Below the pieces are notes generated by a model. The model had not been told where the DNA came from, did no database searches, and saw only the letters and a list, made by a program, of their open reading frames with translations. From positions 1,364,001 to 1,428,000 of the forward strand of contig OZ237736.1 in the NCBI GenBank assembly GCA_965178125.1: a DNA stretch of 64,000 nt, written 5' to 3'. A program made the position numbers and the translations under genes. Below, one piece after another: positions 16,357 through 58,539 of the stretch. This DNA comes from Bilabrum cf. latius. Its lineage: Eukaryota. The number at the start of each line of letters is the position of its first letter. Position 1 is the stretch's first letter.

Positions 16357-16594
16357 GACTTCGAAGAGGTCTTCTTGTTCAAGCTTGTGGCACAAGGAGG
16401 CTGTTCTGGCAAAGATCGCAAGATTGTGCTCCGATCGGATTTGAGGCATAATGATATGTCGCTTTGAGCGCGGCTTGACGACATCCTTACTTGGCCTTAA
16501 TCGGCTCTTGAACTGTGTAACCACTCTGATGATACCCATTGACTACTTTGTCATACGATTGCTGTAATTTTTTTGTCGTTTAAGTCGAGGGGGC

Positions 16595-35259: not shown

Positions 35260-35373
35260 GAGACCAGCCGCCCTTCAGTGGAGGCGCTCTCGAACGGTTC
35301 TAATCCTCCGGTCGAAGAGACCAGCCGCCCTTCAGTGGAGGCGCTCTCGAACGGTTCTAATCCTCCGGTCGAA
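35260..35373. repeat. Perfect 57-bp tandem duplication spanning the lipoate-ligase stop codon
   Basis: 35260-35316 is identical to 35317-35373. Confidence 0.95.
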
Positions 35374-36435
35374 CGGTTTCTTGGGCCTGTCTGCGACCGG
35401 TACGTCGAGCAGCCGCTCCGCCTCTTCAGCCGTCATTCCCGCCGCCTCCCAGGCATCCTCCTCACTGACGTGCTCCACGTCATCGAACCACATCCCGAGC
35501 CCGTCCACCACGGCGCTCGCCAGCTCCTCCGGCCCCGCCAGTCCACCCGACTCTCTTCGGGCCGTCGTGAGGAAGTCCTCGTGCGATCGGTCCCCACGGT
35601 ATGCCGGCCGCTTGGGCGGGAGCTTGAGGACGCGCATGAGAGCGGGGTCCATGTTCGTCAGGAAGCTCGTGTGGTGCACGAAGCGCCCCCTTGTGATGGT
35701 CTGCGCGTTGCCCCCCACCTTGCGGGGCCCGAAGCAGTAGTCGTGCTCGGACAGATGGAAGGGGCCGGACGGGCCTCGTGCCACATCGACGAATCCTCTC
35801 GAGGTAGCTCTGCGCCGCAGGGCGAGCAAATCGCTGTCCTCTCTCGGTTGGGTTTCACCTGCGGTCATAGGCTCTGCAGATCCGAACAAGGGCGCATATG
35901 CCCTACTGTACAGCTCCGATGTCCACGCCATGATCTCTCGTGGGTGTTTCGGCACGCCATCGCCGGAGTTGAGAATCAAGGATCCAAAAAAGGTGTCCTG
36001 ATCGGCCACAACCGTGCCGCCGCCCGTGAACCTTCGAAGCACATCTACCTCTGCACTGCGGATGACAGCGGGAGGTAGCAGCGATTCCGGGGGAAGGCAC
36101 TATTACTCAATAGGACAACAAAAGCGTGTGGTGGATGACGTCTGCACTAACCTGGCCGCCGCAGTCGAATCAATCAATTCGCTTGCCACGCCGGACATGC
36201 CTAGGACTACTGTTGGCCTCTACAAGCCAGAACCAACAACACACCTGTAAATATGAGGATAGTGAATAGGAAAATGCGGAATGAATCGGGACCAAGGAGC
36301 TTGGGCGGGGCATGCAAAAGGCCGGACATACCAATCATGCTGTGTCCTCCGAAGCAAAGCCTCCTCAAGAATTAAGCACTTGCCAATGCTGATGCGAGCA
36401 AGCTGCAGAGCAAACACTTTCCTGCTACCAATCAT
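35332..36435 (-). CDS. Lipoate-protein ligase A-like (BPL/LplA/LipB family), 3 exons
   Basis: LEEALLR..W|CVV..PTVVLGMSG, RRFTGGGTVV, DYCFGPRKVGGNAQ, HHTSFL and YRGDRSHEDFL. Introns 36245-36331 and 36056-36151. TAG at 36220. Confidence 0.9.
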
Positions 36436-36628: not shown

Positions 36629-39600
36629 ATGGGATGCTGCTACAGCGCCGTTCAACCTGTCGGAAAAGGATGTCAAAGTGACGTAGACCGAAGCATGCTG
36701 CTCGACCGGCTAGGCAAGAGAGATGGACGAATTGGGGGAGACCTAGAGGACGACCGGATGAGCGGAAGATGAGAGGCGTGCGAAAGTAGATGGAGGAGAT
36801 ATGGTGCAGGACTGGGCTAAGAGCGATCCGAGGAACCGTTAGGTTGAGGGACGGAGAAAGGAAGCTTTGGAACAGGTAGAATGACGTCAACGAGGCACTG
36901 CAGACGAGATTGGTAAGGCGGATGGCGCCACGAGCAAGTCTGTATGGATGGTGAGAAGACGGAGTGGATGGGACCTGCAGATGGAAGTGGTGAATCTTTC
37001 ATCTGTATGGTTGCGGACGAAAGTCCACCGTCATGGTTATGCTGTCTTGTGCAGCACCCATTGTTCGGTTATGCTTGACCCTAAATCAGATTTCAGATTT
37101 CAGATTTTTTTTTTCGAGGATCCAGGAGCCTTAGCTGCACCACAACCCCACCACGGCGGGCAATAGGTGCTGCTAGGTCATCCTGAGTGAACTCGGGAGC
37201 CTCGACGAGTGCCACAGAGTTTGAGCTTTGGACGAGGGTCCATTGTGAGATCTCGAAGGTGATGATGATGAGTGAATGTAATGATACGACTTTTTCAGAT
37301 TTTTGTAGGCGCGTGGCGCTACTATGATCAGGGGTAAACCCTATGATCAGGTAAGTAATCATGACAAGGTAAGTCTGAACGTGATTGCGCCGGACGATCT
37401 CTTCTACTGCAGAACGCATGGGATCCAATTCCTGTATGGCGCGAGAGTGCTGATCGACGTGATCAACTACGGTTGGGAGTACGACTTCCAGAAGGACGAA
37501 TGGAAGTCAGGGGCCAAACTCCCAAAAGTCAAGCGGGTTAGCCTGGAGCCGTTCATACGCAAGCTCCGAGACATTTGCTGGTACAACCCCGTCGCGGAGG
37601 CACGGGACGAACTAGCCAACATGTTCGAGTTCATCGGCGATGCAGTCGCGGAGGTCCGAAAGACTGGCATGTACGTATCCATGGCTCAAGTGGAACTGAA
37701 TGACTACCAGAACGCGATCGCATTCTGCTCATTCAAGTGGACAGAGATGGGCAAACTTGAGACTACCGAAGGAGAGAAGTGGCGCCAAGCCATCCTGGAG
37801 CCCGAAAAGTTTGACGTACCTCAGCCACGCAGGAAGAAACGGGCCAAGAAGAAGAAGAAGAAGAAGAAGGACAAGGCTACAGAACCAGAGCCAGAGACCC
37901 AAGCAGCAGCAAGTGTATCGACACCAACGGCTATCAACACGTTCACCCGCGAGGAGGATCCCGACCAATCGCGGTCTTCGCACACTAGCCCTCCAGCGAG
38001 CCAGGTGAAACTGGAGGAGTGCACAACCACCACAGATCTAGGCCACGCCGAGATCGACAATATCAAGGCCCGGAGAGGGGCCAGTGGCAGCTGGGCTGCT
38101 GCTGATGGAGAGCCACTGGAAGCTGATGCGGATGGGTACATCAAGGGGACGGAGTGCGCTGCCTGGGGCAGGCCTCCAGGAGAGGAAGGAACGGAGGGCG
38201 CTGCCTGGGGCAGGCCTCCAGGAGAGGAAGGGACGGAGGGCGCTGCCTGGGGCAGGCCTCCAGGAGAGGAAGGGACGGAGGGCGCTGCCTGGGGCAGGCC
38301 TCCAGGAGAGGAAGGGACGGAGGGCGCTGCCTGGGGCAGGCCTCCAGGAGAGGAAGGGACGGAGTGCGCTGCCTGGGGCAGGCCTCCAGGAGAGGAAGGG
38401 ACGGAGTGCGCTGCCTGGGGCAGGCCTCCAGGAGAAGAAGGGACGGAGGGCGCTGCCTGGGGCAGGCCTCCAGGAGAGGAAGGGACGGAGGGCGCTGTGT
38501 GGGGTTGGCCTCCAGGAGAGGAAGGGACGGAGTGCGCTGCCTGGGGCAGGCCTCCAGGAGAGGAAGGGACGGAGGGCGCTGCCTGGGGCAGGCCTCCAGG
38601 AGAGGAAGGGACGGAGTGCGCTGCCTGGGGCAGGCCTCCAGGAGAGGAAGGGACGGAGGGCGCTGCCTGGGGCAGGCCTCCAGGAGAGGAAGGGACGGAG
38701 GGCGCTGCCTGGGGCAGGCCTCCAGGAGAGGAAGGGACGGAGGGCGCTGCCTGGGGCAGGCCTCCAGGAGAGGAAGGGACGGAGGGCGCTGCCTGGGGCA
38801 GACCTCCAGGAGGCGGGTCAGACCAGAAGAACGGGGAAGGGGCAGGAAGGTCAGGGCGTCCTCCACCCCCATGGCCCGATGGAGACGGGAATGGGGACAT
38901 GAGTGCAATGGGCTGGTGGAGTCCGGCACTCAATGGTCATCGCGACACCTCCTGCGCAGCAGATGGTGCCCATGACTCGGCTAAACTATTAACTTCTACC
39001 AGCCGAGTTCATGGAGCTGTCGTCTTGCCTGTGGTGGAGAACGCGCGAGGCCTCCGGTGGATTTTGAACTGGCAACAGTTTCCACAGAGCCGGAATCGGA
39101 AAGGAGCTGGCATGCCGGTGGTCGGGAAGCCCTCCTATGGGTATCGAGCCCGAGGCTCCAGGAGTTTCAGTTGCGCCACAACCCCACCACGGCGGGGTAT
39201 AGGCGTTTCTGGATCATCCTGAGTGAGCTCGGAAGTCTCGATAAGTGCCACAGAGAATTAGTTTTGGGCGAGGGTCCAAGGCGAGGTCTCGAAGGTGATG
39301 ATGACGATTGATTATGAAGATACGACTTTTCACAGATTTCAGGCATCAATGAAGCCCGTAACCAGCTGGTGGATGATGTTGCTGGCCAAGAATACGCAAA
39401 CATACGAGATTTCGACGACATCACGGTTGATTCTATCTTCGAGCACCCGCTTCTCCGGCAACTATTTATGATTTTCGTGTCGAGCCGACTGGCGGAAGAG
39501 AATGGACGCTTCCTGCTCGACATGCGGGAGCTGAACAAGAACAGCATCGCCATGAGCGAGGTCATATTGCGCACGGCAATCGATTTTATGTAAGGCGATC

Positions 39601-41756
39601 GCTTTGATCCACCTGTGGGGTTGTGGACTGCAGAACAGCTGCGGTCAACTTCGCTTCACTACCCGTGGATTTCTCATTCGTCTCCCCGCAGAGTCGATGA
39701 ATACATCCGGCGTTCGTCTCCGATGTGCATCAACCTTCCTGATACCATTCGGCGAAACGTAGAGCGTAAAGCAGACGACAGAGACACCACCGAAGGAGCA
39801 GAAATACTGCTAGCACTGGGGTCAGCCGATTCGGAGATTCGCAGGCTGGTTCGGTCCAACTTCCTCAGCGAGTTCAAGCGATGGCTAAAGGGCGAAGGCG
39901 CTGTTGAAGGATTCTAGGCCGCGGCGCCGCTGCGAGCCCTGGATGGCCGCAAACGAGTCGTGATCATCGGCGGGGGCTTCTGCGGGGCCTTTGCAGCTCG
40001 AGAGCTTGATCAGCATCCGGGGCTGCACGTGACCATGGTAGATACCAAGAGTTTCATGGAGTACACACCATCGGTGCTGAAGGTGTTTTGTCGTCCAGAC
40101 TACCACGAGAAGATCATCGTGCCTCACGGGGCCGTGGTGAAAAGAGGCGACGTTGTAGTGGGCGCCGTGCGAGCCATCCGGGACCGCGAGATAGTGGTGA
40201 ATCAGGCGTCTATCCCATTCGACTTTGCAGTGGTGGCCACTGGTACTCACTACCCTTAGCACTTCAAGAGCGTTGCCATCAGCTCGAAGTTCCGTGGCAA
40301 GCAGGTGGCACAGCAGCGCAAGGTGATGGACCAGGCCAAGAGCATCTGCATTGTGGGCGGCGGCTTTGTCGGGTGCACGTTGGCCAGCGAGATCAAGGAG
40401 ACGATGCCCGATACGGAGGTGTCTCTCGTGCACTCCCGCGCCCGGCTCATGCAGCGCCTCGTGCACTCGGGGGCGGGGGACCCGCACGAGCTGGCCGTGG
40501 CGCGGTTGCGGGAGCTGGGGGTGCAACTGTTCATGGAATAGCGAGCCACGAGCTGGGACCGGAGGGCCAGGCAGGTCATCACCACGGGCGGGGCAAGAGT
40601 GGACGCGGACCACGTGTTCTGGTGCGGAGGTCCTGAGCCCATGACCAAGTTCATGGTCCCGCACTTGCCGCAGACTCTGGACAGCCGGGGGTACATCCAG
40701 GTGGACGCTCACCAGCAGGTGGTGGGTGCCTCAGGTGTGTTTGCCGGAGGCGACTGCATGGTGTATCGGCTGGGGGACAACGACAGGGAGGCGAGGCAGC
40801 GGTTGCGTACCTTGGGAGCAGTGGATGCTATCCAGCTGCACCACGACTTTGTGGCATCTCTGGACAAGCCCGGGGGAGAGGTGGACGGGGGCGGGGAGCA
40901 AGGCGGGGAGGACGTGGCATTGTCGGGCATGAATGGGACAGGGGCTAGGCACGACAAATTGACGACAGGGCTAGCGCACAAGCACGCCGGCGCAGGAAGC
41001 GGCCTTGGCGTGGTTAGCAAGGGAAGCGAGGGTGGTGGTCTTCAAGGTGGCGATTACAGTCGCGAGACCGAGGGAGGAAGCAGTCCCACGGCATCCAACT
41101 GTCGAGGGCGAGCATATCTGGTCGAAGTGACCCGCAAGGATACGATGTCAGGGTCATTGTCACAGCATGGGCGAAGTGACAAGCGAGGCACCGGCATGGC
41201 ATGGGGGGATCGCGCCACAATCGGGTCTCTGTCACAGCATGGGCGAAGTGACAAGCGAGGCACAACCACATCTGAATGGAGGGATCGTGACACCACAGAG
41301 CCAGTTGGGAGCACTTAGGTCGCCACTGTGAAACCATAGGTAGTTTTAACTGGTGATCCAACAGTTGGGAGCACTTAGGTCGCCAATGTGAAACCATAGG
41401 TAGTTTCAACTGGTGATCCAAGGTAGCCCCAGTCCCAGACGCAGTCCTCGGTGGCCCTGCCCAGCGACACGGGCTGCGTGCACGAGGAGAAGATGGCCAA
41501 GAACGCCATCCAGCACGGCATCATCATCGCAGAGAACATCAAGAGGCAGCTGGAGGGGACCAGCCTGAGGGCGCGCAAGCCCGAGGTGGGCATCAACCTC
41601 ATGATCATAGCCATGGGACTCAAGAAAGGTATCATGGTGCAGAACGGGGTGGCCCAGGCGGGGGACTTTGTGGCCAAGAAGGACTGGATCGAGCAGACGG
41701 TGATTGGTGAGCTTGTGGAGGGAAAGCACATCCAGCACATTGTGGGGGCGTTCTGA
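36629..41756 (+). CDS. RGS domain + AIFM2/FSP1-like FAD/NAD(P)H oxidoreductase fusion, copy 1; exons 36629-36713, 39343-39589 and 39692-41756
   Basis: N-terminus MGCCYS..DRSMLLDRL|GINEARNQLVDD is homologous to copy 2. RGS motifs LFMIFV..LAEENGRF, YIRRSSPMCINL and EIRRLVRSNFLSEF; Rossmann motifs VIIGGGFCG, IVGGGFVG and VFAGGD. TAG at 39915, 40257, 40539 and five more in 41316-41426. Ends at TGA. Confidence 0.8.
37115..37308 (+). repeat. Diverged direct repeat of about 190 bp, copy 1 (copy 2 at about 39151-39342)
   Basis: Shared collinear blocks CCACAACCCCACCACGGCGGG, TCATCCTGAGTGA, AGTGCCACAGAG, CGAGGGTCCA, TCTCGAAGGTGATGATGA and GATACGACTTTT..CAGATTT. Confidence 0.85.
37324..39222 (+). CDS. 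Hypothetical ORF inside the insertion: globular-looking N-terminal part, poly-Lys stretch, 16x WG-containing repeats
   Basis: 632-codon ORF with RRKKRAKKKKKKK and GTE[G/C]AAWGRPPGEE repeats. No recognisable family; start and splicing uncertain. Confidence 0.45.
   Translation: MIRGKPYDQVSNHDKVSLNVIAPDDLFYCRTHGIQFLYGARVLIDVINYGWEYDFQKDEWKSGAKLPKVKRVSLEPFIRKLRDICWYNPVAEARDELANMFEFIGDAVAEVRKTGMYVSMAQVELNDYQNAIAFCSFKWTEMGKLETTEGEKWRQAILEPEKFDVPQPRRKKRAKKKKKKKKDKATEPEPETQAAASVSTPTAINTFTREEDPDQSRSSHTSPPASQVKLEECTTTTDLGHAEIDNIKARRGASGSWAAADGEPLEADADGYIKGTECAAWGRPPGEEGTEGAAWGRPPGEEGTEGAAWGRPPGEEGTEGAAWGRPPGEEGTEGAAWGRPPGEEGTECAAWGRPPGEEGTECAAWGRPPGEEGTEGAAWGRPPGEEGTEGAVWGWPPGEEGTECAAWGRPPGEEGTEGAAWGRPPGEEGTECAAWGRPPGEEGTEGAAWGRPPGEEGTEGAAWGRPPGEEGTEGAAWGRPPGEEGTEGAAWGRPPGGGSDQKNGEGAGRSGRPPPPWPDGDGNGDMSAMGWWSPALNGHRDTSCAADGAHDSAKLLTSTSRVHGAVVLPVVENARGLRWILNWQQFPQSRNRKGAGMPVVGKPSYGYRARGSRSFSCATTPPRRGIGVSGSS
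38146..38812 (+). repeat. 42-bp minisatellite, about 16 copies
   Basis: Tandem array of GGGACGGAG[G/T]GCGCTGCCTGGGGCAGGCCTCCAGGAGAGGAA. Confidence 0.95.
39151..39342 (+). repeat. Diverged direct repeat of about 190 bp, copy 2, forming the 3' end of the insertion
   Basis: Collinear with 37115-37308. Both copies end in a pyrimidine tract followed by AG|GC. Confidence 0.85.
41302..41421 (+). repeat. 60-bp tandem duplication within the coding linker of RGS-oxidoreductase copy 1
   Basis: CAGTTGGGAGCACTTAGGTCGCCA[C/A]TGTGAAACCATAGGTAGTTT[T/C]AACTGGTGATCCAA x2. Each unit has two in-frame TAGs. Confidence 0.9.
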
Positions 41757-42233
41757 TCACCAAGCCTCCATCCGACGTGGAAGCGCAGCAACGCTGGCTT
41801 CTGGCCCGGAACTTATGTGCTCTATCATGGTGCAGCAGCATGATGGCGGCCTTAAGCAGAATAGTCGATTGGATGGCTATATGACGAGTCGGGTGCCAGC
41901 ACTGCCCAGCGGGGTATTTGCTGTCAACGTTCAAGTCCATGAGTCGAATGCGACCCGAAAAGCAGCGCAGGGCTAGCAGCCTTAGTTTGAGTTCGAAAAT
42001 TATTGCAAGATTGTCCCCCCGCCGATTTTTTTTTCCTTCCAGTCGTCTCGACTCTCGGGTTGGGCCCTTCAACGAATATTCGTGCTCGCCCAGTTCCCCA
42101 GGGGGATCTCGCCGAACACACGAAGGCCTACCCGGCTGCTGCTGCGTCACCCAAACACAACCACCCCACCTGTGTGCGTCAAATTGTGAGATTGATCCGC
42201 ATACTTCTTTATTGTATCTGCAACACTAACAGG

Positions 42234-44581
42234 ATGGGTTGCTGCAGCAGCTCTTCGGTCCGACCCGTGGGACAAGGACGTGAAAGTAGCGATGTTGAAC
42301 GAAGCATGCTGCTCGACCAGCTAGGCATTAGCCAAGCCCACAATCAGCTCGTCGATGACATAGCGGGCTATGAAAATGTTACGGTGTCAGCTGTCGACGA
42401 CATCACGGTTGATTCTATCTTCGAGCACCCACTTCTCCGGCAACTATTTATGATTTTCGTGTCGAGCCGACTGGCGGAAGAGAATGGACGCTTCCTGCTC
42501 GACATGCGGGAGCTGAACAAGAACAGCATCGCCATGAGCGAAGACCACGTACGCACGGCAATCGATTTTATGTGAGTACGGTGTGGCTTGCATCTTGTGG
42601 TATCAGAGGACGCTTTGACGTGCATGTTCCAAGTTGCTCAACTTCGCTACACATCTCGTGGATTTCTCATTCGTCTCCCCGCAGAGTCGATGAATACATC
42701 CGGCGTTCGTCTCCGATGTGCATCAACCTTCCTGATACCATTCGGCGAAACGTAGAGCGTAAAGCAGACGACAGAGACACCACCGAAGGAGCAGAGGCGC
42801 TGCAGTCTCTTGGCACAGCCGATTCTGAGATTCGCAGGCTGGTTCGGTCCAACTTCCTCAGCGAGTTCAAGCGATGGCTAAAGGGCGAAGGCGCTGTTGA
42901 AGGATTCTAGGCCGCGGCGCCGCTGCGAGCCCTGGATGGCCGCAAACGAGTCGTGATCATCGGCGGGGGCTTCTGCGGGGCCTTTGCAGCTCGAGAGCTT
43001 GATCAGCATCCGGGGCTGCACGTGACCATGGTAGATACCAAGAGTTTCATGGAGTACACACCATCGGTGTTGAAGGTGTTTTGTCGTCCGGACTACCACG
43101 AGAAGATCATCGTGCCTCACGGGGCCGTGGTGAAGCGAGGCGACGTTGTAGTGGGCGCCGTGCGAGCCATCCGGGACCGCGAGATAGTGGTGAATCAGGC
43201 GTCTATCCCATTCGACTTTGCAGTGGTGGCCACTGGTACTCACTACCCGTCTAGCATCAAGAGCGTTGCCATCAGCTCGAAGTTCCGTGGCAAGCAGGTG
43301 GCACAGCAGCGCAAGGTGATGGACCAGGCCAAGAGCATCTGCATCGTGGGCGGCGGCTTCGTTGGATGCGAACTGGCCAGCGAGATCAAGGAGACGATGC
43401 CCGATACGGAGGTGTCTCTCGTGCACTCCCGCGCCCGGCTCATGCAGCGCCTCGTGCACTCGGGGGCGGGGGACCCGCACGAGCTGGCCATGGCGCGGTT
43501 GCGGGAGCTGGGGGTGCGCCTGTTCATGGAGTAGCGAGCCACGAGCTGGGACCGGAGGGCCAGGCAGGTCATCACCACGGGCGGGGCAAGAGTGGACGCG
43601 GACCACGTGTTCTGGTGCGGAGGTCCTGAGCCCATGACCAAGTTCATGGTCCCGCACTTGCCGCAGACTCTGGACAGCCGGGGGTACATCCAGGTGGACG
43701 CTCACCAGCAGGTGGTGGGTGCCCCAGGTGTGTTTGCCGGAGGCGACTGCATGGTGTATCGGCTGGGGGACAACGACAGGGAGGCGAGGCAGCGGTTGCG
43801 TACCTTGGGAGCAGTGGATGCTATCCAGCTGCACCACGACTTTGTGGCATCTCTGGACAAGCCCGGGGGGGAGGCGGACGGGGGCGGGGAGCAAGGCGGG
43901 GAGGACGCCGACGACAAGAAAGGAGATGCCGACGACCCCGCAAGCACCCCTGCCGCAGGAGCAGCCGTGGACATATACGAGGGCAAGGAGCCCACGAGCG
44001 GTGGCATCGGGAGCACGGGGGGTAGCTCTTCGGAAGGCACCGAGGACCACTCCAGTGCCGCTGTAGCGGACAGCAGAGGCAGCAGGTACCAGGCTGGCAG
44101 CAACACGAAGTCCGTTCCTTCGGGCACACTCTCCCAGCAGGGGGCGCCGGAGGGACCAGGCGACCCCAGCACTGCCTAGGGCAATGGGGACGCCTCGTAG
44201 GCGGGTAGCGGCGGCGTCGGTGACACAGGGGCTCAGACGGACAAGGGGGGCAAGAAAGCCGCCTCTCGCAGGTCCCAGTCGCAGTCCTCGGTGGCCCTGC
44301 CCAGCGACACGGGCTGCGTGCACGAGGAGAAGATGGCCAAGAACGCCGTCGAGCACGGCATCATCATCGCAGAGAACATCAAGAGGCAGCTGGAGGGGAC
44401 CAGCCTGAGGGCGCGCAAGCCCGAGGTGGGCATCAATCTCATGATCATCTCCATGGGACTCAAGAAAGGCATCATGGTGCAGAACGGGGTGGCCCAGGCG
44501 GGGGACTTTGTGGCCAAGAAGGACTGGATCGAGCAGACGGTGATCGCGGAGCTCGCGGAGGGAAAGCACATCCTGCACTGA
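42234..44581 (+). CDS. RGS domain + AIFM2/FSP1-like oxidoreductase fusion, copy 2; exons 42234-42571 and 42685-44581
   Basis: MGCCSSS start and the same RGS and Rossmann motifs as copy 1. TAG at 42908, 43532, 44177 and about 44198. Ends at TGA. Confidence 0.85.
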
Positions 44582-44947
44582 GGCAGTGGCAAGACACCCG
44601 ACTGTCTGCATCGCGATGGGCCTCGCCAGAGGCTACATGCCCTGACGCGTCAGCCGATGCCACACAGAGTTGGAGTTGACATGTGATGGGCTGCTCGAGC
44701 CACCGGGTGCAGGCTGCTAGCCTGCCACACCACGCCACGGTAGACCACCCCAATGCATTTACTGCAACTGCCTGTAGCAAAGCAAACCATATTGTTTAAG
44801 TCAGTCATTTGCAGCACTTCTTGTAGAATCTGGGATGTACCGTGCAACATCTGAGCACGCGTGGTACATCCAATTTTTGGGATTGATCGCGGTGGATCCA
44901 GGCCGCTTGCGCGGACCTGGTAAAGCCAATAACACGCAAGCCAGGCA

Positions 44948-47900
44948 TCACTGGGCTGCCTGTACGGTCACAGTGACGGCGTCTGCATACGCCACGACGT
45001 CCTCATCGTAGTACAGGTATGCCTTGGACGTGGGACCGACAAACCTGCCAATGCCCGCGGCGCTCAGCTGCACAGGCGCCTTCTTGCTCTCGCCGGCGTC
45101 TAGCTCCCTCCAGTACAGCAGCAGCTCCCTCCCGCGCTGCTCCCACGCGTCGATGGTGCCCTGGGCCACGAGTCCCTGCAGCTGGGATGGCTGCAGCTGC
45201 AGGCCAGCGGGGACGCCCACCACAGCGATGGTCATGGGCACCCCCTTGGAGGCGCGCTCGTTGGTGACGGTGACTGTCATCTCCGTGGACCTGCCTTCCG
45301 CCATTGTGGTGTCGGCGAGGTTCACTGCAATGCTCAACTGAGCGGCGTCTGCATCTGCGGAGGCGGGCTTTACTTCTCCCCCTGCTTGGCGTGTTTCAGG
45401 CTGGGGTGCCGAGCGCGAGCGGTACGACACCTTCAACGACCACGGCAACACTGCTTCGGAACCTTGCTGACCGCCGACTGCTCCTCGCTACGTCGATGCG
45501 GACCATGTGTCATCATAGTACTCAATGTAGGTCTACTGCTGCTGCACACGAACGCTAGTGCCAGACAGGCGAGCTCTGAAGACCAGTGCCTCCGGGGACT
45601 GTGCGTCTGCCTGGATGCTCTAGTCGATCGCCTCCAGTAGTGGGCGCTCTTTTAGCAGTACCGGGGCGAGGGGTGAGGACCCTTGTGCCTAGGAACGGGT
45701 CACTACCCCAGGCATTGTGCCCTCCGCAACTGACTTCCCCTTCGAGTCAAACATGAAGAAGCTGGTGCCTGCCACCCGCTTCGCCATCACTGCGTCCAGC
45801 TTCGTAATGGCTTTGAGCGCGAGGACGGTAGCCTGCGTGGTCCCAAACCGGCCTCCCCGGTTCTGAGTCAGGACCCACTGCACCCCTTGCGTGGCCGCTG
45901 TAATAAGCTTCATCGCGTCTTGGGCAGAGCTCGTACCGGGGTAACGCTGTAGAATTTCGCTTGCCTTGATCCAGGCCAGAACGGCAAGCGAGGTCGTCTC
46001 CACGCGCAAACCATCGCCGTCGCTGCAAGTTATTGACGCCACCGCCCCCGGCACGCTGCCTTCGTAGCATGCTGCTGTTGAATCGCTCCCACCGCCACTG
46101 CAGCTAGTCTGCTGTGCATCGAGGAGGGAGAGTGCCATCGCTGTCGCCAGAACGGCCGACTCTTTCCGGGTAGCTGTTTCCACTACGTGCTCAGCTGCTT
46201 CCATGGAAGCCAGTGCCACCAGGGCTGCAAAGTACGGATCGTTGGCATACGTCAAGCTAGCATCTGCAGCGGCTGGCTTCCCCTTGAGTATTGGCCGGCC
46301 GGACCGCTGTGCGGTGCACTGCTTGCTGGTCGTGCTTCTGACGATAGGACGGGACAGCTGCTGGACGGCGTGATCAAGCTCAGCGCGCAGCTCAGTGGCT
46401 AGACCGCGCAGAATATTTTTCTCCCGCAGCATTTTTGAGGGTGACAGCATTGCCCACAGAATGTACGCATCCGTCGTGTGAGGAGGAGCGCGACCGAATG
46501 AATCCAGGGCCTGGCTGTCGCGCTGGAACCCCCCAGAGCCGTCCCTCTTGCTGAGCAGGAAGGATCGAACCCTTTTAAGAAGCGCGGGGTCCACGCCTGA
46601 CCACACGGTTGACATGTCTAGAAACTGCAGCGCGCCGTAGGCAGTCAGCGCTTCGTGGGGACCCGCCCTGCCGCCCTGGCACCCGAACCACTCGAACCCT
46701 CCGGGGTGCCCCTCGCACTCGAACGTGAGCAGCTTCTTGTAGCCCTCTTCTACTAGGGTCTGCGCCTTTAGCTTTATTGCATTCGGCACACTTGGGTGCA
46801 TGTTGAAGTAGTGCATGGCCATCGTCATCGGGTACACGGTGGAGCTGCTCTGCTCGAAGCAGCCGTGCGGTTGCTGAATGAGAGACTCCAGGGCACTCCC
46901 TAGAGTTGCCGCAGGGGACTGGTACAAGGCAAATGCAGCTCGCATGGAGCCAGGGATGACATCGGCTTTGCTTGGGAGCGTCAGTTTGATCTCGTTGTCG
47001 CCCTCGGAGGACAGCACCCCTGACGCGTGCTCCTCTCTCAGGAAGCCGGAAGATTCCACCTTGAAAGAGCCCTCCCACGCGTCTTGGTGTCCGCTGATAT
47101 GAGCGGCCTTCTTGTTTGTTGACTTTGTTTGGCTCGCTCTTGCCCCTGGAGTCGGTGTTGGGAGCGGGTTGCAGCCTCGACAAGCAGCGATGCGGATCGT
47201 CTGGACCCCCACCTTGGCTGGCGTGGGCTGCCCAGCGTACTTGCGAGCGTTGCCCTTCCATACTCTTTGACCAGAGCTTCGCCCCGGATTCTGGGTGCTA
47301 ATGTCTGCAACTGGGCGCTCCGGACGTGGAAGCAATCCGTGCAAAGGGAGAAAGGCGCGATCTCCGGAAGAGCCGCGCGTCAGGTTCATCGCAGTCAGCA
47401 GTGCAAAGGCGGCTTCTGGCTCATCCGAAGCCACAGTGTCCGGCACAAACTCCTTCTTAGCCGGACGGGCAATCACGTTCCATTCAGTTGGCGAAATAGT
47501 GCCGGCGCTGCCGGAGCTGCGAATAAAGTCGCTTGCCTACTTCCAGCTCATCGGAGCTGCGTACGGTCCCATATCTACCCGCACACTCACAGACGCACGA
47601 TCCCGAGCGGGCTCCGAGAGCCCCACCAAGACCGGCAGGAGGTACTGGTCCTCGCTCCCGATCACAGGGAGGGGCGCCACGGCCAGTGACAGAGGTTTGG
47701 CGGTGCGGATGTACCCCGTCATCGCGCCAAGCCCCGTGTGCTCGCCGCCCAGCTGCAGTGTGGCAGAGCCCCGGTTGCGCTGAGCCAGCTTCGCGGGCGA
47801 GTAGGCAGATTGATCGAGAGAGGAGTGCGAAACGACGTCCACCTCGATGCGAAACCGCCCGATGGTGTCGGGCAGGCCGAGCTCTAGCTGCGCGAACCCG

Positions 47901-50900
47901 GTTGATGTTGCGACAGAACCGAACGCGACAGTCTTGGCGAAGTCGGTGCGCACGTCTGTAGAAGCGCCATTCGTGTTGGTCACCTGCCTGTGCGCGAACA
48001 CTCGCTGGAAAAAGTGGGCTCGTCGCTGCTGGCGATGGCGCTCGTTGTAAGATCGCTTGTCCACGACACTCGGGGCGGGTCTCGCTGGTGGGACGGCAGC
48101 AACGTCGTGGACCGCTCCGAAGTCAGCCGCGCCCTCCATTGCTGGGGCCGCCCCTGCTGCCATTGCCATTTCAGGAGCTCCGTCTGCCATGGCCATCATC
48201 GGGACCGGGGCACCGAAGGCTCTGTCCATGATCTCACCTCGAATTGCATGCATGCGCTACATCTTCATGTTCGCGGCACCCCCACCTCCGCGAGCCATCA
48301 CTAAGCCAGCTGGTCTTACTCCAGTTGCCGATGCGTACATGATGTCTGGCGAGTAGCCCGATACGCTCGAAGTGGGCGCAAGACACACCGCTCTTGCAAT
48401 TTTCTCAGCATCCTTCCTGTCCTTGGAAGGAACAAACAACCGCTTCCAGTGCAAGCTAGCTAGCGTCTGCTGGCTGCTCTGCGAGTCCGCTCCCTCATTT
48501 CCATGGATGCCACGTGAATCGCCTTCACCGGCTGATTCCGGCGCACTGCCGGCATGAGGTCCAGCCCTGGATATCCCAGGCATTCCGATGGGACCTCCTT
48601 CGTTGCCATCGCCCTAGCCAGCTGCCTCCTCCGCCAGTGCATCGCGATCGATCCCAATGTCTGCGCCACGACCGGCAGCGAACACGGGGCGACCACCAGG
48701 CGTCCCTCCGCCGCGCTGCTGCGGTATGAACCGAGGCCCGCTAGGGGCGAGCGGTGACAGCGCGCCTGCCAGATCCGTGTACACGAACCTGCGCCAGCCC
48801 TGGGTGCCCAGCAGCAAGTCGGTGGCGTCAGCAGGCGACGCACCCCGATCTCCTTCCTCTCCCGTGGCTGCCTGCCTCTCGGACACGCCGCTGCCAGGGA
48901 ACACACTCGCAAGATAGGCGCCTGCGTCGGGGAGGGGAGCGCCGAACGGCTTGCCGCTCAGGGCGTCTACCTCGCTCTCGAGCAGCAGCTGGGCCATGGG
49001 CCGGGGCTGCCACCGGCGGCGCTGCACCCGCGAGGTCTCCTGGTCATCGACCACGCGGACCAAGATGAGGGAAGGCGTGTCCTGTCCTCTAGCGCGTGCA
49101 CGCACCGAGAGACTGACGGTGGCGCCAGGTGCAAATGCCGGTGGCTCGTTGCGCGCGGCACCGGCCGGGCCTAGCTGTCCGACGGCAGGCATAGACTCCC
49201 ACGAGCTGTGGCTGATCGCATCGGTGTTCTTCGTGGCGAGCCCGTCGTAGCTCGTGGCGTATTGCATCTGTGACGTCTCTAGCTTGGTAGGCGCGTCCAT
49301 CTCGGTCACTCGCGCGTCGAGCTGGACTCGGCTGGATTCCGGCGGGGCCCGGAATACCAGCCTCTCGGCGAGCGGTGTCCCCGTCTCGCTCTCTACCACC
49401 GTGATGCGCAGCACGCCGACCGCTGAAGAACTCAGTTGGGGCACCAGGTTCACTGCAGTGCTTATGGGCGCCGTGCCCTGTAGCGTCACACCGACCTGGC
49501 ACAGCATCTGCTCCTTCTTGTACATTCCGACAGTCACGTGCCCGCGGTGCGTGGAAGCCAGCAGCACCTTGACCGCGCTTTCTCCGTCATACATGCTCTC
49601 AGGTGCAAACATGGACACGCCGAACGGACGGGGTGCCTGCAGGGGCAGAGTCCGAGCCGCAGAGTCGGGCTCCAGAATCCTGAGCTCGAGCTGGCCCGCA
49701 CCTGAGGGAACAACGAACACCGGAGTCACGCCACGGCCTTCGTGCTGCGTTCGTGCAGCCACGATACATCCGCTCGGAGCCGCCACGCCTCCCTCCCCTG
49801 CTCCCCGCACGCCGCCGCGGGAGGAGGGTCCCGCGGCGCCATCTCCGCCGTCCCTGCCCAGCGACAGGAACTCGCCCAGCGAGCCCATGACACCGCCTCC
49901 GAACGAGCCGCTGGGAGCATTGCCCTGCAGCGGCGCTTGGTCCCCGGCGGAGCACACCGCCACTGTGACGTCAGCCGGGTCACCACTCGGCAGAGCAGCT
50001 TCGAAGTACACGCGGCCCGGCAGGCCGGCCACCAGCTCTCCTCCCTCGGGGTATGCCAGCACGTCGATGGCGCGGGTCGCGATGGGAATCGCGCGAGAGG
50101 ACGACTCTACCTGATTCGTTCCGCCCGCCGCCCTGTCCTGGTCGAAGACCGTTACGCTCAGCGTGTCTGCGCCACTGCCGGCCCCGGGTCCGAGGGGCGC
50201 GGGCAAGGTGAACTCGAGCGCGCCCCTGCCAGCCGCATCCAGCACCACCTCTCCCTGCCACACCTCCTGCCCGCCCACGCGCGCACTACCGCTGACTCGC
50301 GCCCGCCAGGCAGGCGCGCCCGAGGACCTGGTGGCCTTGATCGATGCGCGCACGGCGTCCCCCTGGCCGTAGGCGTCCTTGTCGAATGCGAGCTCAACGG
50401 ACATGAGGCGGTCCCTGCTCGCGAGAATCACGATTCGCCTCTCCACGGAGGGCATGGTTACCCGCATCGCTTGCGCGCTTGCGCCGCCCTGCCCTGCAGG
50501 CTGCTGCACCACTACTCCCTGGGCGTCTGCTAAGGTGACCGCGATCGTGTACTCGCCGCCCGGCTGGGAGTCGCTGGTCTGCCACGCAGCGACGAGAACT
50601 CCGTCGGTCGATTGCAGCGATACCTTGCTTGGTGTGTTGCCCACATTTCCTCTGCCCGAGTTCCTTGGATTCGAGCTACCAGGGGTGCCATCGGCTTGCA
50701 TCGTGTCCGAGAAGACCACACCACCGGCCGCATCCTTCACCTGCACGGCGAGGCGCGGCATCTTCACCATCGGAGGGTAACCCCCAGACTCAATGGCGCT
50801 GCTGGCGCGAGGCGGTGCAAATGTTATCGGATCCACACACTGCACACGGATGAGCACAGCCTGCCCGGGCTGATACTGGTCAAGGTCCGTGCTGATGTGA

Positions 50901-50947
50901 GCTTGAAGCCGAAGGGACTGCACAGACTCTTTGATCATCTCCTGCAA
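44948..50947 (-). CDS. Alpha-2-macroglobulin-like thioester-containing protein (about 2000 aa; 5' end unresolved)
   Basis: MG-domain motifs ISTDLDQYQPGQAV and AYPEGGELVAG; VRTDFAKT..LPDTIGRFRI; thioester PHGCFEQ; GGFEWFG; HEALTAYG; GRFGTTQATVLAL; C-terminal SKAYLYY. Five ORF-track pieces are joined in frame by 7 TAGs. Ends at TGA. Confidence 0.88.
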
Positions 50948-51463: not shown

Positions 51464-54181
51464 ATGGGAAATGCGGACTCAAGACCCGGAAGTGTACCAA
51501 TTATAGCTAGGCCTAGCCTTCCAGGAGGAAGTAGCAGGCCTCCAGTTCCGTCTACCTCCGAGATAGCGAAGCGATTGCGAGCAGCACTCGTAGGGCAAGA
51601 TCGGTCGTACTGGCTGAGAACGTATCAAGGAGTCATGTTAGGCAATGAAGTAGTAGATTGTTTGGCTGCGCAAGATTGGGCAGAGTCGCGCGAGCATGCC
51701 CTCACGGTGGGGCAGCGGCTGGTGGATGGAGGTGAGATTGGAAGAAGCGTCACACAGCAGCATTATCTGCCGACGCACGAAGCCAATGAAGGCGATCGAT
51801 TCTATCAAACTCGGTTGTTGATTACATGTGTTGCTATTGCTGTGTACGCTATTGCATAGAGGGCAAGTCTGTTTGCGGGTCACACCGTTCATTCCGCCTC
51901 TCGAAGGCGACGTGGCAAGCAGTGCGTCGCCGCATTTCCGTACGGCTCACGTGCCAGGCCTTTGAATTGACCTTTTGTGGCTCGCATGTAGGATCCCCAG
52001 CGATAGGCATGTGTTTTCATCTCATTGCAACGTTGCCGAGCAACGATCCGGGATGCGAGATCCATAACCAGTCCAAACACATACCCTCTCTCCGCCGCAG
52101 GATTCATTCACCACGTAACGCACGACCACCCGTTAAAGGACAAGCCCTTTTTCTACCGACATGCCGGCGCGGTGGCCCCTGATGACCCGCGCCTCAACGC
52201 CGTGGAGCGGGCGGCGATGGAGTACGACCTGATCGTGATCGGCGCGGGTTCCGCTGGGCTCACGGCCGCCAGCTTCGCCGCAAAGATGGGTGCCCGCGTG
52301 GCGATGGTGGAGAAGAACCGCCTGGGAGGGGACTGCACATGGACTGGCTGCGTACCGTCCAAGACCCTCCTGCACATCGCCAAGGTCGCGAGGACTGCCC
52401 GGCGGGCGTCCACCATGGGCCTGGGCGTCTCGGTGGACGAGGGGGCGGTCAAAGTGGACATGAAGAAGGTCCGCGACAAGATCATGTCTGTGATCCACGA
52501 GATATACGCGGAAGAGACTCCGGAGCAGATCGCCCACAAGGGGACGGGCGTTGACGTGGTTCTGGGCGAGGCGCGGTTCACGGGGCCGCACTCCGTGGTG
52601 GTCAAGCTCAAGAACCCGGAGCAGCCCATCGTGAGCGCGTGTGCATCCAAAGTTGGAGGGAGCGCTGCTGCTGCGGCGTGCAGCGGTGGCGAGGCAGCCG
52701 AGGGAACAGCCTCCTCCAAGGAGCCAGGCAACCCGGCATCAGCCGCAGCAGCGGGCCGGTCGGGAGCAACGACGGGTAGTGCAGGGGGTGGGGCCGGGGC
52801 CGGCCAGGCGCCGCCCAAAGCTGAGACAGGCCCCGACGGAAAGGTGCTGCCCGGCCACAGGCATCTGACAGGTAAAGCTTTTGTCATCGCAACTGGGGCC
52901 GTGCCATCCATCCCCGCATTGGCTGGCCTCGGCGAGGTCGAGTACCACACGTACGAGTCCATCTTTGAGAACGACAGGCTGCCCGAGCGCCTGTGCGTGC
53001 TCGGAACTGGACCCATCGGGTGCGAGCTGGCGCAGGCGTACGCCTATTTGGGCAGCAAGGTGACGATATTCGGCCGTCACCTGATGGGCAAAGAGCACGA
53101 GGGCGCGAGGGACGTGATCCAAAGGGTCTTCGAGAGAGAGGGCATCGAATGGGTGCCTGAGAGGCCCACCCGGGTGGACAACTTGGAGAAGCTGGGGAGT
53201 GCGGGCGCAGGCGATGGAGCTGGCGCCGTCAGTGTAACGGGAAGCGGGCAAGGGCAGTTGCCGTCACAAACAGGAGAGGAAGGGGGAGGCAAGGCGCCGT
53301 ACAAGCCGACCATCGCGGTGACCGCCGGCCGACGGCGAGTCGTCTGCGACATGCTTCTAGTGTGCACGGGCCGCCGCAGCAAGGTGGACGGCATGGAGCT
53401 AGGCAAGGCCGGGGTCACGCTCAGCGCGAAGGGCGGCCTCAAGGTGAGCGATTACCTGGCGACCAACGCGCCGCACGTGTTTGCGTGCGGGGACTGCATC
53501 GAGGACATGCCGCAGTTCACGCATCTCGCTGGCAAGCAGGGCTTCGTGGCCGCCCGCAATGCGTTGTTCCCTGGGCGCTCCGTGGGCTGGAACGAGACTG
53601 TGGTGAACCCCCGCTGCACCTTCACAGACCCAGAGGTGGCATCGGTGGGCCTGTAGCCCCAGCAGGCGGAGGCCTTGCACGGGGCAGAAGACGTCATGAC
53701 CGTGCGGCGGGCCAACGGGAAGATCGACCGGTCCCTGTGTGACGACGACGTCCCTGGGTTCGTGGAGATGACGGTGAAGCGGTCGGACGGCTCCATCCTC
53801 GGGGCGACGATCGTGGGGCAGCGGGCGGGCGAGCTGGTGAGTGAGGTTGCACTGGCGATGACCAAAGGTCTCAAGGCGGCGGACATCGCGCTGACAATCC
53901 ACGCCTACCCCACGCACAGCATCGGCCTGCAGCAGGTCGCGAGCGAGATAGGGAGCGCGGTGTTCAGGGCAAGCACAGTGGGCCGCATCGCATCGAGCCT
54001 CTACTCCAAGGCAAGGATCGTGAGGGACCACTCCTCCCTTGCCGTGGACGAGCACGACGAGGGCCTCGCGCAGGCAGTGCCCATGCCGCTGCTCGAGTCC
54101 ACCGAGGAGAAGGCAACCGCCGCCGACGCAGGGGGTGCGAGCAGTGGCGCTGGTGCGGGCCTGGGGAGCAGCGGGCCCTGA
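51464..54181 (+). CDS. DEP domain + class I pyridine nucleotide-disulfide oxidoreductase (DLD/MerA-like) fusion; exons 51464-51731 and 52101-54181
   Basis: MGNADS start. DEP motif QDRSYWLRTYQGVMLGNEVVDCL..SREHALTVGQRLVDG|GFIHHV..HPLKDKPFFYR. Oxidoreductase motifs YDLIVIGAGSAG, GGDCTWTGCVPSK, GTGPIGCE, FTDPEVASVGL* and IHAYPT. TAG at 53654. Ends at TGA. Confidence 0.88.
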
Positions 54182-54242
54182 GTGGGCGCTGCACCGGCTG
54201 CTGAAGCCGATAGGAAGTCTAGTACTTCGGAAGGAGCTTTGT

Positions 54243-55709
54243 ATGGGGCGGTACGGCAGCGGCCAACCGGACCGCCGGCGTTCATCCAAATTCAAAACCG
54301 GAACCGCCGCCAGCGAAAGCCCAAAAACTTTCACTCCAAAAATGCGAGCCGTCAGCAATGCTTCTCGAATAACCATGCAGCTTAGCGAATCTTGGCTGAG
54401 CAAAGCACTTGCTTCGCGCCGTGCGGTACTCCCAGATGGAGCTCTCGCAACGCAAGAGCACCTCGAATCGTTCATGCAGGCATGCTCAGAACGATACGGA
54501 ATCGCTCGGCTGGATTCAGCCGAACGCTCTAATGTATCAATACAACTTGCTTATAAGGAAGTTAACGAAGAAATCGGGGGGCCCCTGCAGCTTGAGCGGG
54601 GGATCGTTGGTCAGTCGATACGTCCAGTGGTGTTGCCTGCGGCCCGGCTTGTGCACCGCATCAACGGAAACGTGTCGTCCGTTGACGCATGTCTGGACAG
54701 TAAGAGGCTAAAGTCAAGAGTAAGATCCATGATCCACCACATGCCGGGCCTGCTCAAGGCGATTGGCTGGAGGAAAGGCAGGGATAGAACTGTGCTAGAT
54801 TGCACCGGCGGGCTGGGGCACGATGCCGTTGCCATGGCAAGCTTTGGAGGGACGCGGGTGGTTACTGTAGAGCGACACCCTGCTGTTGCTGCTATTTTAG
54901 ATATCGGACTCCAGCGGATGCAGCACGACAAGGACTTTGTGGACATTTTCGACGACGGCCGTCTGCAGCTGCTGCACGATGACGCGAGGCAGGTGCTCCG
55001 GAGGATGCTCAGGCGAGAGCTGTCGGGGAAAGCGACCCAGGCTGCTCGACCGGACATAGTCTACATGGATCCGATGTTTTCGCGCGATTCAAACAACGGC
55101 AAGGCCGGTCGCGCAGCTCCCAAGTCGGGGTCCCAGATCCTGGGCGCAATCGTGCGGTCCGACGAGCAGCTGCCTGGCAGTGGCAGCGGCGGCGCCTCCG
55201 GGGCACGGGCGCGAGCAGTCGTGTTGCAAGAGGAAGCGGAACAGCTCGAGCTCCTCCGCCTGGCCCTGCTCGTCGCCAAAGAGCGTGTCGTGGTGAAGAC
55301 CCACAAGAGCCTGCCAGCTATCAGCGGGCACCTGGAGCCGATCGATGGATCCAGGTCACAGGGGGATGCCGACAGGATTGAAAATACAGTCGGTATCGAT
55401 AGCACTTTGCATGGTGACCTTACAAACCCGCAGCACCTGGTGGCCCGGACCGATGCCTTGCAGCAGATGCAGAGCAAGGCGCCCGTGCCTCGACCCATGT
55501 TTTCCGTGCCGGGCAAGTCTGTGCGCTTCGACGTGTTTCGAACGCACAGCAAGTCCAAGCGAAAAGAGCTGCTGCAGGTAGTCAGAGACACTGGGATGCT
55601 GGCACCGTCGTGGGCCGCCTGGGCTGGGAACGCGGCGGGCGCGCAGCTGACCGACGGCGGCGGGCGCATGGATCCTGGGGAGGATTCGATTGACTTTGGT
55701 CGATAGTGA
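54243..55709 (+). CDS. rsmJ: RsmJ (YhiQ)-like SSU rRNA m2G methyltransferase; start codon uncertain
   Basis: VLDCTGGLGHDA, VERHPAVAAILDIGL, PDIVYMDPMF, AKERVVVK and RFDVF. Ends CGA-TAG-TGA. Confidence 0.8.
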
Positions 55710-57390: not shown

Positions 57391-57434
<44 letters not shown>

Positions 57435-58391: not shown

Positions 58392-58539
58392 CCGAACTGG
58401 AGATAGTGTTTGCACTTCTATTCACGGTTGCAGCACGGAACTGCAACTGCGTTTAGCCCGGGCCCCAGGCGGTCTTGGACTGCAATACACTACACTCACA
58501 AGCAAAAGCTAAAGCAATGACAAACATAAAGACATGCCG

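Follow-up and report, generated by a model that had tools for sequence, protein, structure and literature searches.

Background

FSP1 (AIFM2) is a myristoylated protein that reduces coenzyme Q10 (CoQ10). In animals, where it is intensely studied, it blocks ferroptosis as a lipid-anchored reductase of quinones and vitamin K; how signalling pathways regulate it is, to our knowledge, little understood. Type II NADH dehydrogenases (NDH-2) are monotopic membrane flavoenzymes that reduce quinones as well, and canonical RGS proteins have the RGS domain joined to DEP/GGL, PDZ or RhoGEF modules. Here we analyse a gene in which an RGS domain is followed, within the same protein, by an FSP1-like oxidoreductase. 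It lies in a stretch of 64,000 nucleotides (nt) from Bilabrum cf. latius (assembly GCA_965178125.1, contig OZ237736.1, positions 1,364,001 to 1,428,000 of the forward strand), which in its whole length is called the window below and whose first letter is position 1 for all coordinates given. The gene is present in two copies, an interrupted copy 1 that starts at 36629 and a copy 2 at 42234–44581, and both contain TAG as a sense codon. The architecture is already represented in the sequence databases, where it is uncharacterised; the window gene, which is expressed and slightly elaborated, is a new member of this family.

Among the described systems, FSP1 (structures 8jsc, 9ift, 8wik, 8yo8, and 7xpi) is the solved structure that best matches the window protein in both sequence and fold. 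The two share a pair of Rossmann motifs, the Glu after the second of these, the GD motif, the C-terminal domain, and an N-terminal Gly-2 motif. The window protein departs from FSP1 in the RGS domain ahead of the enzyme, in the two cysteines that follow Gly-2, and in a disordered loop of approximately 190 residues past the motif GDCM, and in trees the fused proteins form a clade separate from the stand-alone relatives of approximately 345 residues. The NDH-2 enzymes form the second tier in fold comparisons (target template modelling (TM) score 0.64–0.83), with a similarity below that of FSP1 and without any RGS domain; bacterial proteins named NADH dehydrogenase match the window oxidoreductase at expect values (E) of 1e-8 and weaker. 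To canonical RGS proteins (RGS2, RGS7, RGS17, and others) the window domain is weakly similar overall; it has two asparagines that are conserved in RGS2 and RGS7, and it is fused to an enzyme and not to DEP/GGL, PDZ or RhoGEF modules. A further comparison is that with database proteins which combine an RGS and a Pyr_redox_2 domain. These have the same domain order, align collinearly and fall into one oxidoreductase clade. The identity between the fungal members and the window protein is, however, only 26–31%; neither the fungal nor the nucleariid members have the MG start or the loop, and in many of them the C-terminus is extended into a long tail. The window gene is further set apart by its in-frame TAG codons.

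Gene structure of copy 2

The gene was delimited by its reading frames and by comparison with the assembled contigs of X1, X2, X5, and X6, which are four of the eight runs covering the stretch and none of which is on record as RNA. Its parts are as follows.

42234–44581, + strand: copy 2 gene, two exons with in-frame TAG codons, product of 744 residues
42158–42233, + strand: 5' untranslated part; the X1 and X2 contigs begin at 42158 and 42172, respectively
42234–42571, + strand: exon 1 (112 codons plus 2 nt), MGCCSSSS and the first half of the RGS domain
42572–42684, + strand: intron of 113 nt, phase 2, GT..AG, coinciding with the contig joint
42685–44581, + strand: exon 2, second half of the RGS domain, linker, and FSP1-like oxidoreductase, with a TGA stop at 44579–44581
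42908–42910, + strand: linker TAG at the RGS/oxidoreductase junction, present in the X1 and X2 contigs without letter difference and located in a stretch of low model confidence

Copy 2 is an expressed two-exon gene that encodes the RGS domain and the oxidoreductase as a single coding unit. Its start codon at 42234 (ATG GGT TGC TGC) has an A at position -3 and a G at +4, and no ATG occurs in the leader between 42158 and 42234. The frame of exon 1 closes at a GTGAGT donor (42572) and reopens past CGCAG (42684); joining 42571 to 42685 restores the codon, and the resulting sequence is collinear with RGS domains. Four TAG codons are in frame (42908, 43532, 44177, and 44198), and exon 2 is otherwise open up to the TGA. 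Under the standard code the frame ends at TAG 42908, and the gene is indeed invisible to a conventional translation, as had been noticed in the initial annotation of this DNA, which was made from the letters alone. The same annotation had described MGCC starts, GF-TAG-AAAPLRALDG junctions, two Rossmann GxG motifs, and VFAGGD, and all of these were found in both copies, the Rossmann motifs being of the GxGxxG form. It had also read each copy straight through from the N-terminus to the oxidoreductase with one TAG per copy. The domain order stands, whereas in both copies an intron divides the RGS domain, copy 1 is broken by a further 2,629 nt, and the true number of in-frame TAG codons is four in copy 2 and eight in copy 1.

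X1 and X2 each contribute a single contig with the joint of 42571 to 42685, which is flanked on both sides by 255 letters. The respective contigs (X1, 42158–43865; X2, 42172–43850) hold the leader, the RGS domain, TAG 42908, and most of the oxidoreductase; for copy 2, they speak against separate transcripts of the two parts, as they span both of them together with the TAG between. Further contigs (X1, 43886–44783; X2, 43912–44695) hold the insert described below and the stop codon and contain no second joint, and no letter differences are listed for X1 or X2 at any of the four TAG codons. The joint is absent from X5 and X6, whose contig 42657–43907 starts inside the intron. Upstream of the gene (41739–42019) X1 and X2 have no depth. 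We read X1 and X2 as RNA-derived and the joint as spliced mRNA, which is a guess as to the nature of these runs.

The FSP1-like oxidoreductase and its insert

The oxidoreductase part of exon 2 is divided as follows; model confidence is given as the predicted local distance difference test (pLDDT).

42947–43753, + strand: Rossmann core for flavin adenine dinucleotide (FAD) and NAD(P)H (GGGFCG, GGGFVGCE, VFAGGD), Pyr_redox_2
43532–43534, + strand: TAG within the oxidoreductase (FME-TAG-RATSW), facing a homolog column that is mostly Glu
43754–44317, + strand: lineage-specific insert of approximately 190 residues between GDCM and VHEEKMAK, a gap in the FSP1 alignment, with TAG codons at 44177 and 44198
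44318–44578, + strand: C-terminal part of the FSP1-like fold, aligned to FSP1 residues 283–345, pLDDT 84–98

Residues 88–356 of the exon 2 product match the Pfam family Pyr_redox_2 (PF07992) with 127.4 bits (cutoff 26.1; E 9.5e-37), and the corresponding part of copy 1 does so with E 6.7e-34. Of the 48 distinct sequences in the Protein Data Bank (PDB) that matched with E of 0.001 or less, the six best are FSP1/AIFM2 (E 1.8e-24 to 6.1e-19), followed at a distance by an NADH oxidase (E 6.9e-07) as the first match of another kind. The initial assignment to an FSP1-like FAD/NAD(P)H oxidoreductase is thus borne out. An AlphaFold model of the exon 2 product, calculated from a 40-row alignment, has a mean pLDDT of 74.8 with values mostly above 90 in the core, and in a Foldseek comparison with the PDB its top five matches are FSP1 (target TM score 0.84–0.86), with type II NADH dehydrogenases coming next. 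Values below 50 occur at residues 392–540, which belong to the insert, and at the linker residues 69–79, where the first TAG is located. The Glu following the second GxGxxG motif is kept in copy 2, as it is in 147 of 159 homologs.

The insert, which the initial annotation did not mention, is seen in the FSP1 alignment as an advance from residue 273 to 462 of the query while the FSP1 chain proceeds from 281 to 283. Shorter in-frame inserts occur at the same spot in the two closest database relatives, P0001 and P0002. An intron was considered as an explanation of the insert and rejected: the X1 contigs 42685–43865 and 43886–44783 keep it, the corresponding insert of copy 1 is open, and those of P0001 and P0002 are in frame. 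Long low-complexity inserts between conserved blocks, as in the fusion protein, were also observed in three other genes of the window (a class II photolyase, a mercuric-reductase-like flavoprotein, and a nucleotide-sugar transporter, listed with the other genes below), and such inserts look like a genome-wide habit.

RGS domain and N-terminus

42399–42886, + strand: RGS domain of copy 2, residues 56–180 of the spliced protein, delimited by the family model and spanning the intron

Because the domain is divided between two exons, two kinds of scans have to be distinguished: those with the Pfam RGS profile (PF00615) cover the exons singly, and the spliced domain was scored with a hidden Markov model (HMM) of the family built from 18 member stretches that each pass Pfam's own cutoff (at least 28 bits). 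Against this family HMM the spliced N-terminus of copy 2 scores 92.7 bits (E 1e-27) over residues 56–180 and across the exon junction, as compared to 5.2 bits for the best of 1000 shuffled sequences, which upholds the RGS domain proposed in the initial annotation. Among the relatives, the ortholog P0001 reaches 21.1 bits on positions 54–111 of the Pfam profile, and the Rhizopus member P0006 is placed in Pfam RGS with 44.1 bits, its N-terminal domain matching RGS2 with E 6.4e-08. The top PDB matches of exon 1 are RGS7 (E 0.5). In these alignments AEEN of copy 2 faces SSEN of RGS7, and CINL faces the family consensus LELN, which in turn aligns to KEIN of RGS2. Both asparagines conserved in RGS2 and RGS7 are therefore kept in copy 2, and we take them to be the equivalents of the G-alpha contact residues Asn88 and Asn128 of RGS4. 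When modelled alone, the exon 2 part of the domain forms four helices (residues 17–65) with a pLDDT of approximately 70–86.

The sequence Met-Gly-Cys-Cys directs N-myristoylation and palmitoylation, and the consensus for myristoylation is MGxxxS/T. Going by these motifs, the N-terminus of copy 2 is predicted to be N-myristoylated and S-palmitoylated. Gly-2 and Ser-6 are present in copy 1, copy 2, and P0118, an ortholog of exon 1 with 60% identity that starts with MGCLLS and has the same end point as exon 1. MG starts with Ser at position 6 were also found in P0269 (MGVCCS), P0276 (MGVNQS), and P0365 (MGICTS), two of which belong to Cercozoa sp. M6MM.

Distribution and phylogeny of the fusion family

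An initial database search with the window protein returned 116 matches, the closest of which were P0001 and P0002 (41–46% identity, E of about 1e-115). Both are single open reading frames (ORFs). They start at the site that corresponds to the copy 2 intron or downstream of it, and no stop codon interrupts the passage from the second half of the RGS domain to the enzyme. The combination of PF00615 and PF07992 was found in Rhizopus stolonifer, R. microsporus, and R. delemar as well as in Umbelopsis vinacea, Thamnidium elegans, and Phycomyces nitens, that is, in six Mucoromycota. A profile search of 1.84 billion representative sequences yielded 875 proteins with E of 1e-30 or less. From the best 150 of these 875, those 28 were selected as representatives that aligned from the N-terminal portion of the profile onward; both Pfam domains are present in 16 of them (E of 1e-5 or less), and 12 have no PF00615 match at this threshold. 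Further members of the family were identified in Halteromyces radiatus, Pilaira anomala, and Jimgerdemannia flammicorona, in Paraphysoderma sedebokerense (Blastocladiomycota) and Piptocephalis tieghemiana (Zoopagomycota), in Fonticula alba (two genes, with the UniRef name "RGS domain-containing protein") and Parvularia atlantis, and in Cercozoa sp. M6MM (two genes, from a metagenome-assembled genome). The Dichotomocladium protein P0239 has no PF00615 match at E 1e-5 and bears an RGS domain by the family HMM alone; by this model, an RGS-like stretch is present in 46 of 160 proteins. A profile scan of metagenomes detected 80 loci, the best of which is 35% identical and none of which is a close ortholog.

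Phylogenetic trees were calculated for the oxidoreductase domain. They are unrooted, and the term clade as used here presumes that the root lies outside the respective group. In the FastTree analysis, which kept 145 of 162 rows, the window copies are found within a clade of 55 rows (support 96), 39 of which have the RGS stretch; several of the 16 rows without it are truncated gene calls. A clade of 77 rows (support 98) contains no protein with an RGS stretch. A quick IQ-TREE analysis of 75 selected rows (44 from the RGS clade and 31 others) regrouped all 44 sampled rows of the RGS clade with a support of 96 in the Shimodaira–Hasegawa-like approximate likelihood ratio test (SH-aLRT). Within it, the window copies group with P0001, P0002, P0250, P0364, P0269, P0276, and P0365 (support 90), and the nearest proteins to the window protein are P0001, P0002, and P0250, followed by the cercozoan proteins (support 88–90) and not by those of fungi. 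Judged by these trees, copy 2 is a member of an apparently old and conserved fusion clade that comprises early-diverging fungi, nucleariids, and at least one cercozoan.

The initial annotation had regarded the architecture as undescribed. In terms of sequence records this does not hold, since RGS and Pyr_redox_2 domains are combined in many database proteins. No paper on an RGS-oxidoreductase or RGS-FSP1 fusion was found among titles and abstract openings, a search that leaves subscription journals mostly outside and in which surveys of RGS architectures may still contain a mention of the fusion.

TAG as a sense codon

The window has a G + C content of approximately 60%. When TAG is read through, it contains 51 stop-to-stop frames of at least 300 codons, as opposed to 27 under the standard code. 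Twelve gene frames (10 supported by Pfam and two long unnamed ones) were examined codon by codon; they hold 54 in-frame TAG codons and not a single in-frame TAA or TGA, and 10 of them end with TGA. TAG codons are located within conserved blocks of the selenocysteine synthesis enzyme SepSecS and of the class II photolyase. TAG is a sense codon and TGA the usual stop codon in this organism, as follows from the exclusive in-frame use of TAG and from its occurrence inside these conserved blocks. No tRNA gene was found within the 64-kb window.

630–1886, + strand: SepSecS, with 54% identity to animal enzymes and a match to human structures at E 1.2e-107
762–764, 858–860, 1113–1115, and 1311–1313, + strand: TAG codons 45, 77, 162, and 228 of SepSecS

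The amino acid inserted at TAG was approached by means of the alignment columns that these codons face. In 120 SepSecS homologs, the column of codon 228 contains Glu 118 times and Gln twice, that of codon 162 has Asp 117 times, that of codon 77 has Gly 100 times, and that of codon 45 is variable; Gln accounts for 3, 0, 0, and 2 of the 120 residues in the columns of codons 45, 77, 162, and 228, respectively. The column of the oxidoreductase TAG at 43532 consists, in 159 homologs, of Glu (94), Asp (18), Gln (16), Thr (9), gaps (6), and others (16), which corresponds to 94 Glu and 16 Gln among 153 residues once gaps are excluded. A TAG of the photolyase (56655–56657, - strand) faces Glu in one PDB chain. 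Two other positions are uninformative, namely a TAG of a P4-ATPase that faces Thr in one PDB chain and a TAG of the mercuric-reductase-like protein that faces Ser, Thr or Phe. Over the five well-sampled columns, Glu has a summed log frequency of -13.1, ahead of Asp with -16.5 and Gln with -19.6; this naive score draws on two proteins, and fish sequences make up most of the SepSecS set. The columns thus speak against the translation of TAG as Gln that the initial annotation had recommended and favour Glu, a lead and not a proof. In the ORF 16568–20914, the repeat units were searched for codons that correspond to TAG, and every TAG context matched itself alone. The architecture of the fusion protein is unaffected by this choice, because the residue encoded by the linker TAG lies in a disordered stretch.

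For Amoeboaphelidium, UAR has been reported to encode Gln (PMC5304391). An aphelid affinity of the DNA was considered and dropped, since the TAG columns do not point to Gln and since the oxidoreductase lies next to P0001, P0002, and P0250 and then to cercozoan proteins, and not to those of fungi. A genetic code with UAG for Glu and UGA as stop would be unusual in a GC-rich eukaryote that has spliceosomal introns, and among titles and abstract openings of the literature no case of UAG for Glu was found in a GC-rich eukaryote outside the ciliates and trypanosomatids.

Copy 1, an interrupted and diverging paralog

36629–36713, + strand: copy 1 exon 1a, MGCCYSAV... (28 codons plus 1 nt), assigned by homology to copy 2
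36714–39342, + strand: insertion of 2,629 nt or putative GC..AG intron, with GGCA at either end
37324–39222, + strand: ORF of 632 codons within the inserted segment; 42-nt tandem repeats occupy 38020–38949
39343–39589, + strand: copy 1 exon 1b, remainder of the N-terminus and first half of the RGS domain, collinear with copy 2 if spliced
39590–39691, + strand: copy 1 intron of 102 nt, GT..AG, in a position equivalent to that of the copy 2 intron
39692–41756, + strand: copy 1 exon 2 with eight in-frame TAG codons and a TGA stop at 41754–41756
40377–40379, + strand: ACG (Thr) in copy 1 where copy 2 has GAA (Glu) in GGGFVGC-E, a position with Glu in 147 of 159 homologs

Copy 1 starts at 36629 with ATG GGA TGC TGC, and its GF-TAG-AAAPLRALDG junction has the TAG at 39915–39917. 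The two copies have a mean column identity of 87% with nearly identical exons and diverged intron sequences; their homology begins at the ATG and is absent upstream of it. In copy 1 it ends after 85 nt at CTAG|GCAAGAG and restarts at 39343 after TTTCAG. Removal of 36714–39342 by a GC..AG splice would open an unbroken frame of 799 codons that is collinear with copy 2, but the joint of 36713 to 39343 was found in no contig of the four runs. The tandem pair proposed in the initial annotation accordingly exists as two homologous copies, one of which is interrupted and has replaced the near-invariant Glu by Thr.

Outside the insert in the oxidoreductase, the copies differ by 36 synonymous and 39 non-synonymous codon substitutions. 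A patch that is PSSI in copy 2 reads PQHF in copy 1. The diverged 681-nt insert of copy 1 contains no in-frame TAA or TGA, which counts against decay since only 22 of 5000 shuffled sequences are equally open. No X1 or X2 contig lies on the parts specific to copy 1 (39321–42157), which are covered by X5 and X6; this is missing cover and no proof of silence. Copy 1 is diverging as a paralog and has perhaps lost its function; we regard a functional and a dying gene as about equally probable.

The ORF within the interrupting segment consists in part of approximately 17 tandem units of 14 residues (AAWGRPPGEEGTEG). It belongs to no Pfam family and gave no usable Atlas match. Contigs of X1 and X2 cover it at 37272–38175 and 38772–39320 with a depth above that of the fusion gene, and it is taken to be expressed as well. 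It is flanked by direct repeats (37115–37294 and 39151–39330) that are 82% identical, and the flanking unit of approximately 187 nt (37115–37301 and 39151–39330) is a dispersed repeat. A contig that starts at 36713 after a different sequence is present in all four runs, which indicates that this segment is repeated elsewhere in the genome; one X6 contig (36400–36746) bridges position 36713 as in the window. All four runs have contigs that link the segments 36713–37102 and 37115–37301/39151–39330 to other sequence, and one X1 contig of 4,628 nt ends in 36713–37102.

Other genes in the window

The remaining features that were annotated are listed below.

13734–15446, + strand: nucleotide-sugar transporter with low-complexity inserts
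16568–20917, + strand: very acidic frame with repeats of approximately 390 nt, rich in GDGD, DEDW, and GAFDD
26403–26762: tandem array of 11 copies of 24 nt
35332–36042, - strand: lipoate-protein ligase fragment
44948–50938, - strand: alpha-2-macroglobulin-like protein, 1,996 codons with seven in-frame TAG codons
51971–54181, + strand: mercuric-reductase-like flavoprotein with low-complexity inserts
54024–55709, + strand: S-adenosylmethionine-dependent methyltransferase (PF04445)
55770–58421, - strand: class II photolyase with low-complexity inserts
61266–63998, - strand: P4 phospholipid flippase, C-terminal part, running off the window

The SepSecS gene implies that the organism has selenocysteine machinery while TGA serves as its main stop codon; the SepSecS frame enters a probable intron after residue 387 or so. 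The alpha-2-macroglobulin-like frame contains a TED domain (E 1.5e-17), a weak MG2 match, and the string GCFEQ.

Proposed mechanism and alternative explanations

The explanation that we consider best, and hold with moderate confidence, is that the whole constitutes a TAG-translated fusion protein, a lipid-anchored reductase that is controlled or placed by a G-alpha subunit. The protein would be situated at the cytosolic face of a membrane, held there by its acylated Met-Gly-Cys-Cys terminus, and would pass electrons from NAD(P)H via FAD to a membrane quinone in the manner of FSP1 and the type II NADH dehydrogenases. Its RGS domain would bind the GTP form of G-alpha and thereby tie the place or time of quinone reduction to G-protein activation, and the G-alpha subunit may be switched off simultaneously. 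The quinone substrate and the binding of G-alpha are inferred from knowledge of the protein families, and lipidation and the sense in which any control acts are likewise inferred.

Several observations weigh against this explanation. Pfam's RGS profile matches exon 1 with 19.7 bits (E 0.0012, profile positions 2–41), below its cutoff of 23.9, and even at E 10 exon 2 yields no match within its first 74 residues. There are RGS-homology domains that do not bind G-alpha, and no G-alpha gene is located within the 64-kb window. Of 22 other fusion proteins with known starts, 18 have no MG terminus, among them six proteins of Mucoromycota, two of Fonticula, and one of Parvularia; lipid anchoring is therefore not a feature of the family. 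Furthermore, X1 is marked "probably DNA", neither X1 nor X2 has an RNA record, and their joint could stem from an intron-less DNA copy of the gene. Even if both were DNA, the RGS and oxidoreductase parts would still be joined in one molecule.

The functional relationship of the two parts could also be the reverse of the one proposed. The RGS domain would then be the working end, a GTPase-activating protein whose activity or access is tuned by the flavoenzyme acting as a sensor of the NAD(P)H or quinone state. The conservation of both asparagines that align with RGS2 and RGS7 would fit such a redox-gated regulator, as would the short, disordered linker and the conservation of the fusion as one clade, which argues for joint action of the two parts. 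Against this, conservation of the cofactor motifs and of the near-invariant Glu is that of active enzymes and points to catalysis and not to sensing alone, and we regard this reading as unlikely. A different view of the N-terminal part is that the RGS-like domain is a helical module for targeting or scaffolding that acts independently of G-alpha, the protein being simply a membrane-bound FSP1-like quinone reductase. The divergence of the window domain, which reaches the 19.7 bits given above on one half of the Pfam model and nothing on the other, is in line with this, and so are the absence of PF00615 at E 1e-5 from 12 of the 28 representatives with a collinear N-terminus and the precedent of RGS-homology domains without G-alpha binding. 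Conservation of the domain over very distant lineages, with the two asparagines kept and with PF00615 at E of 1e-5 or less in 16 of the 28 representatives, renders a G-alpha-independent module unlikely in our view.

The remaining alternative concerns the gene product itself. If TAG 42908, where the frame ends in the standard code, were a genuine stop codon, the gene would specify a small lipid-anchored RGS protein, and the oxidoreductase would be made separately or by rare read-through. The oxidoreductase part has no ATG near its beginning, though, and TAG occurs inside the conserved catalytic domains of SepSecS, the photolyase, and the oxidoreductase of the fusion itself. The 12 gene frames contain TAG alone and never TAA or TGA, and the corresponding junctions of the relatives are free of stop codons. 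Two products are hence highly improbable, and this alternative is already largely refuted.

Implications

Extended from the lipid-anchored window protein to the whole clade, the favoured explanation would amount to a direct link of heterotrimeric G-protein signalling to redox defence at membranes, in which activated G-alpha binds the RGS domain, recruits or switches on the FSP1-like reductase and is itself turned off. This generalisation is tentative, and we think it rather unlikely to hold in full. If it were true, receptor signalling would locally control the regeneration of quinol antioxidants, and in those members that have no lipid anchor the lipidated G-alpha subunit would serve as the membrane tether. 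As the fusion spans early fungi, nucleariids, and rhizarians, the hypothesis is testable in tractable Mucoromycota.

The window contributes to this picture an expressed member with a Gly-Cys-Cys anchor that resembles the one of G-alpha subunits, and it shows how a reassigned stop codon can hide a multidomain gene from standard annotation. The discovery lies in the recognition of the family and not in the gene of the window: a conserved fusion of an FSP1-like enzyme with an RGS domain says that both activities work together in at least some eukaryotes.

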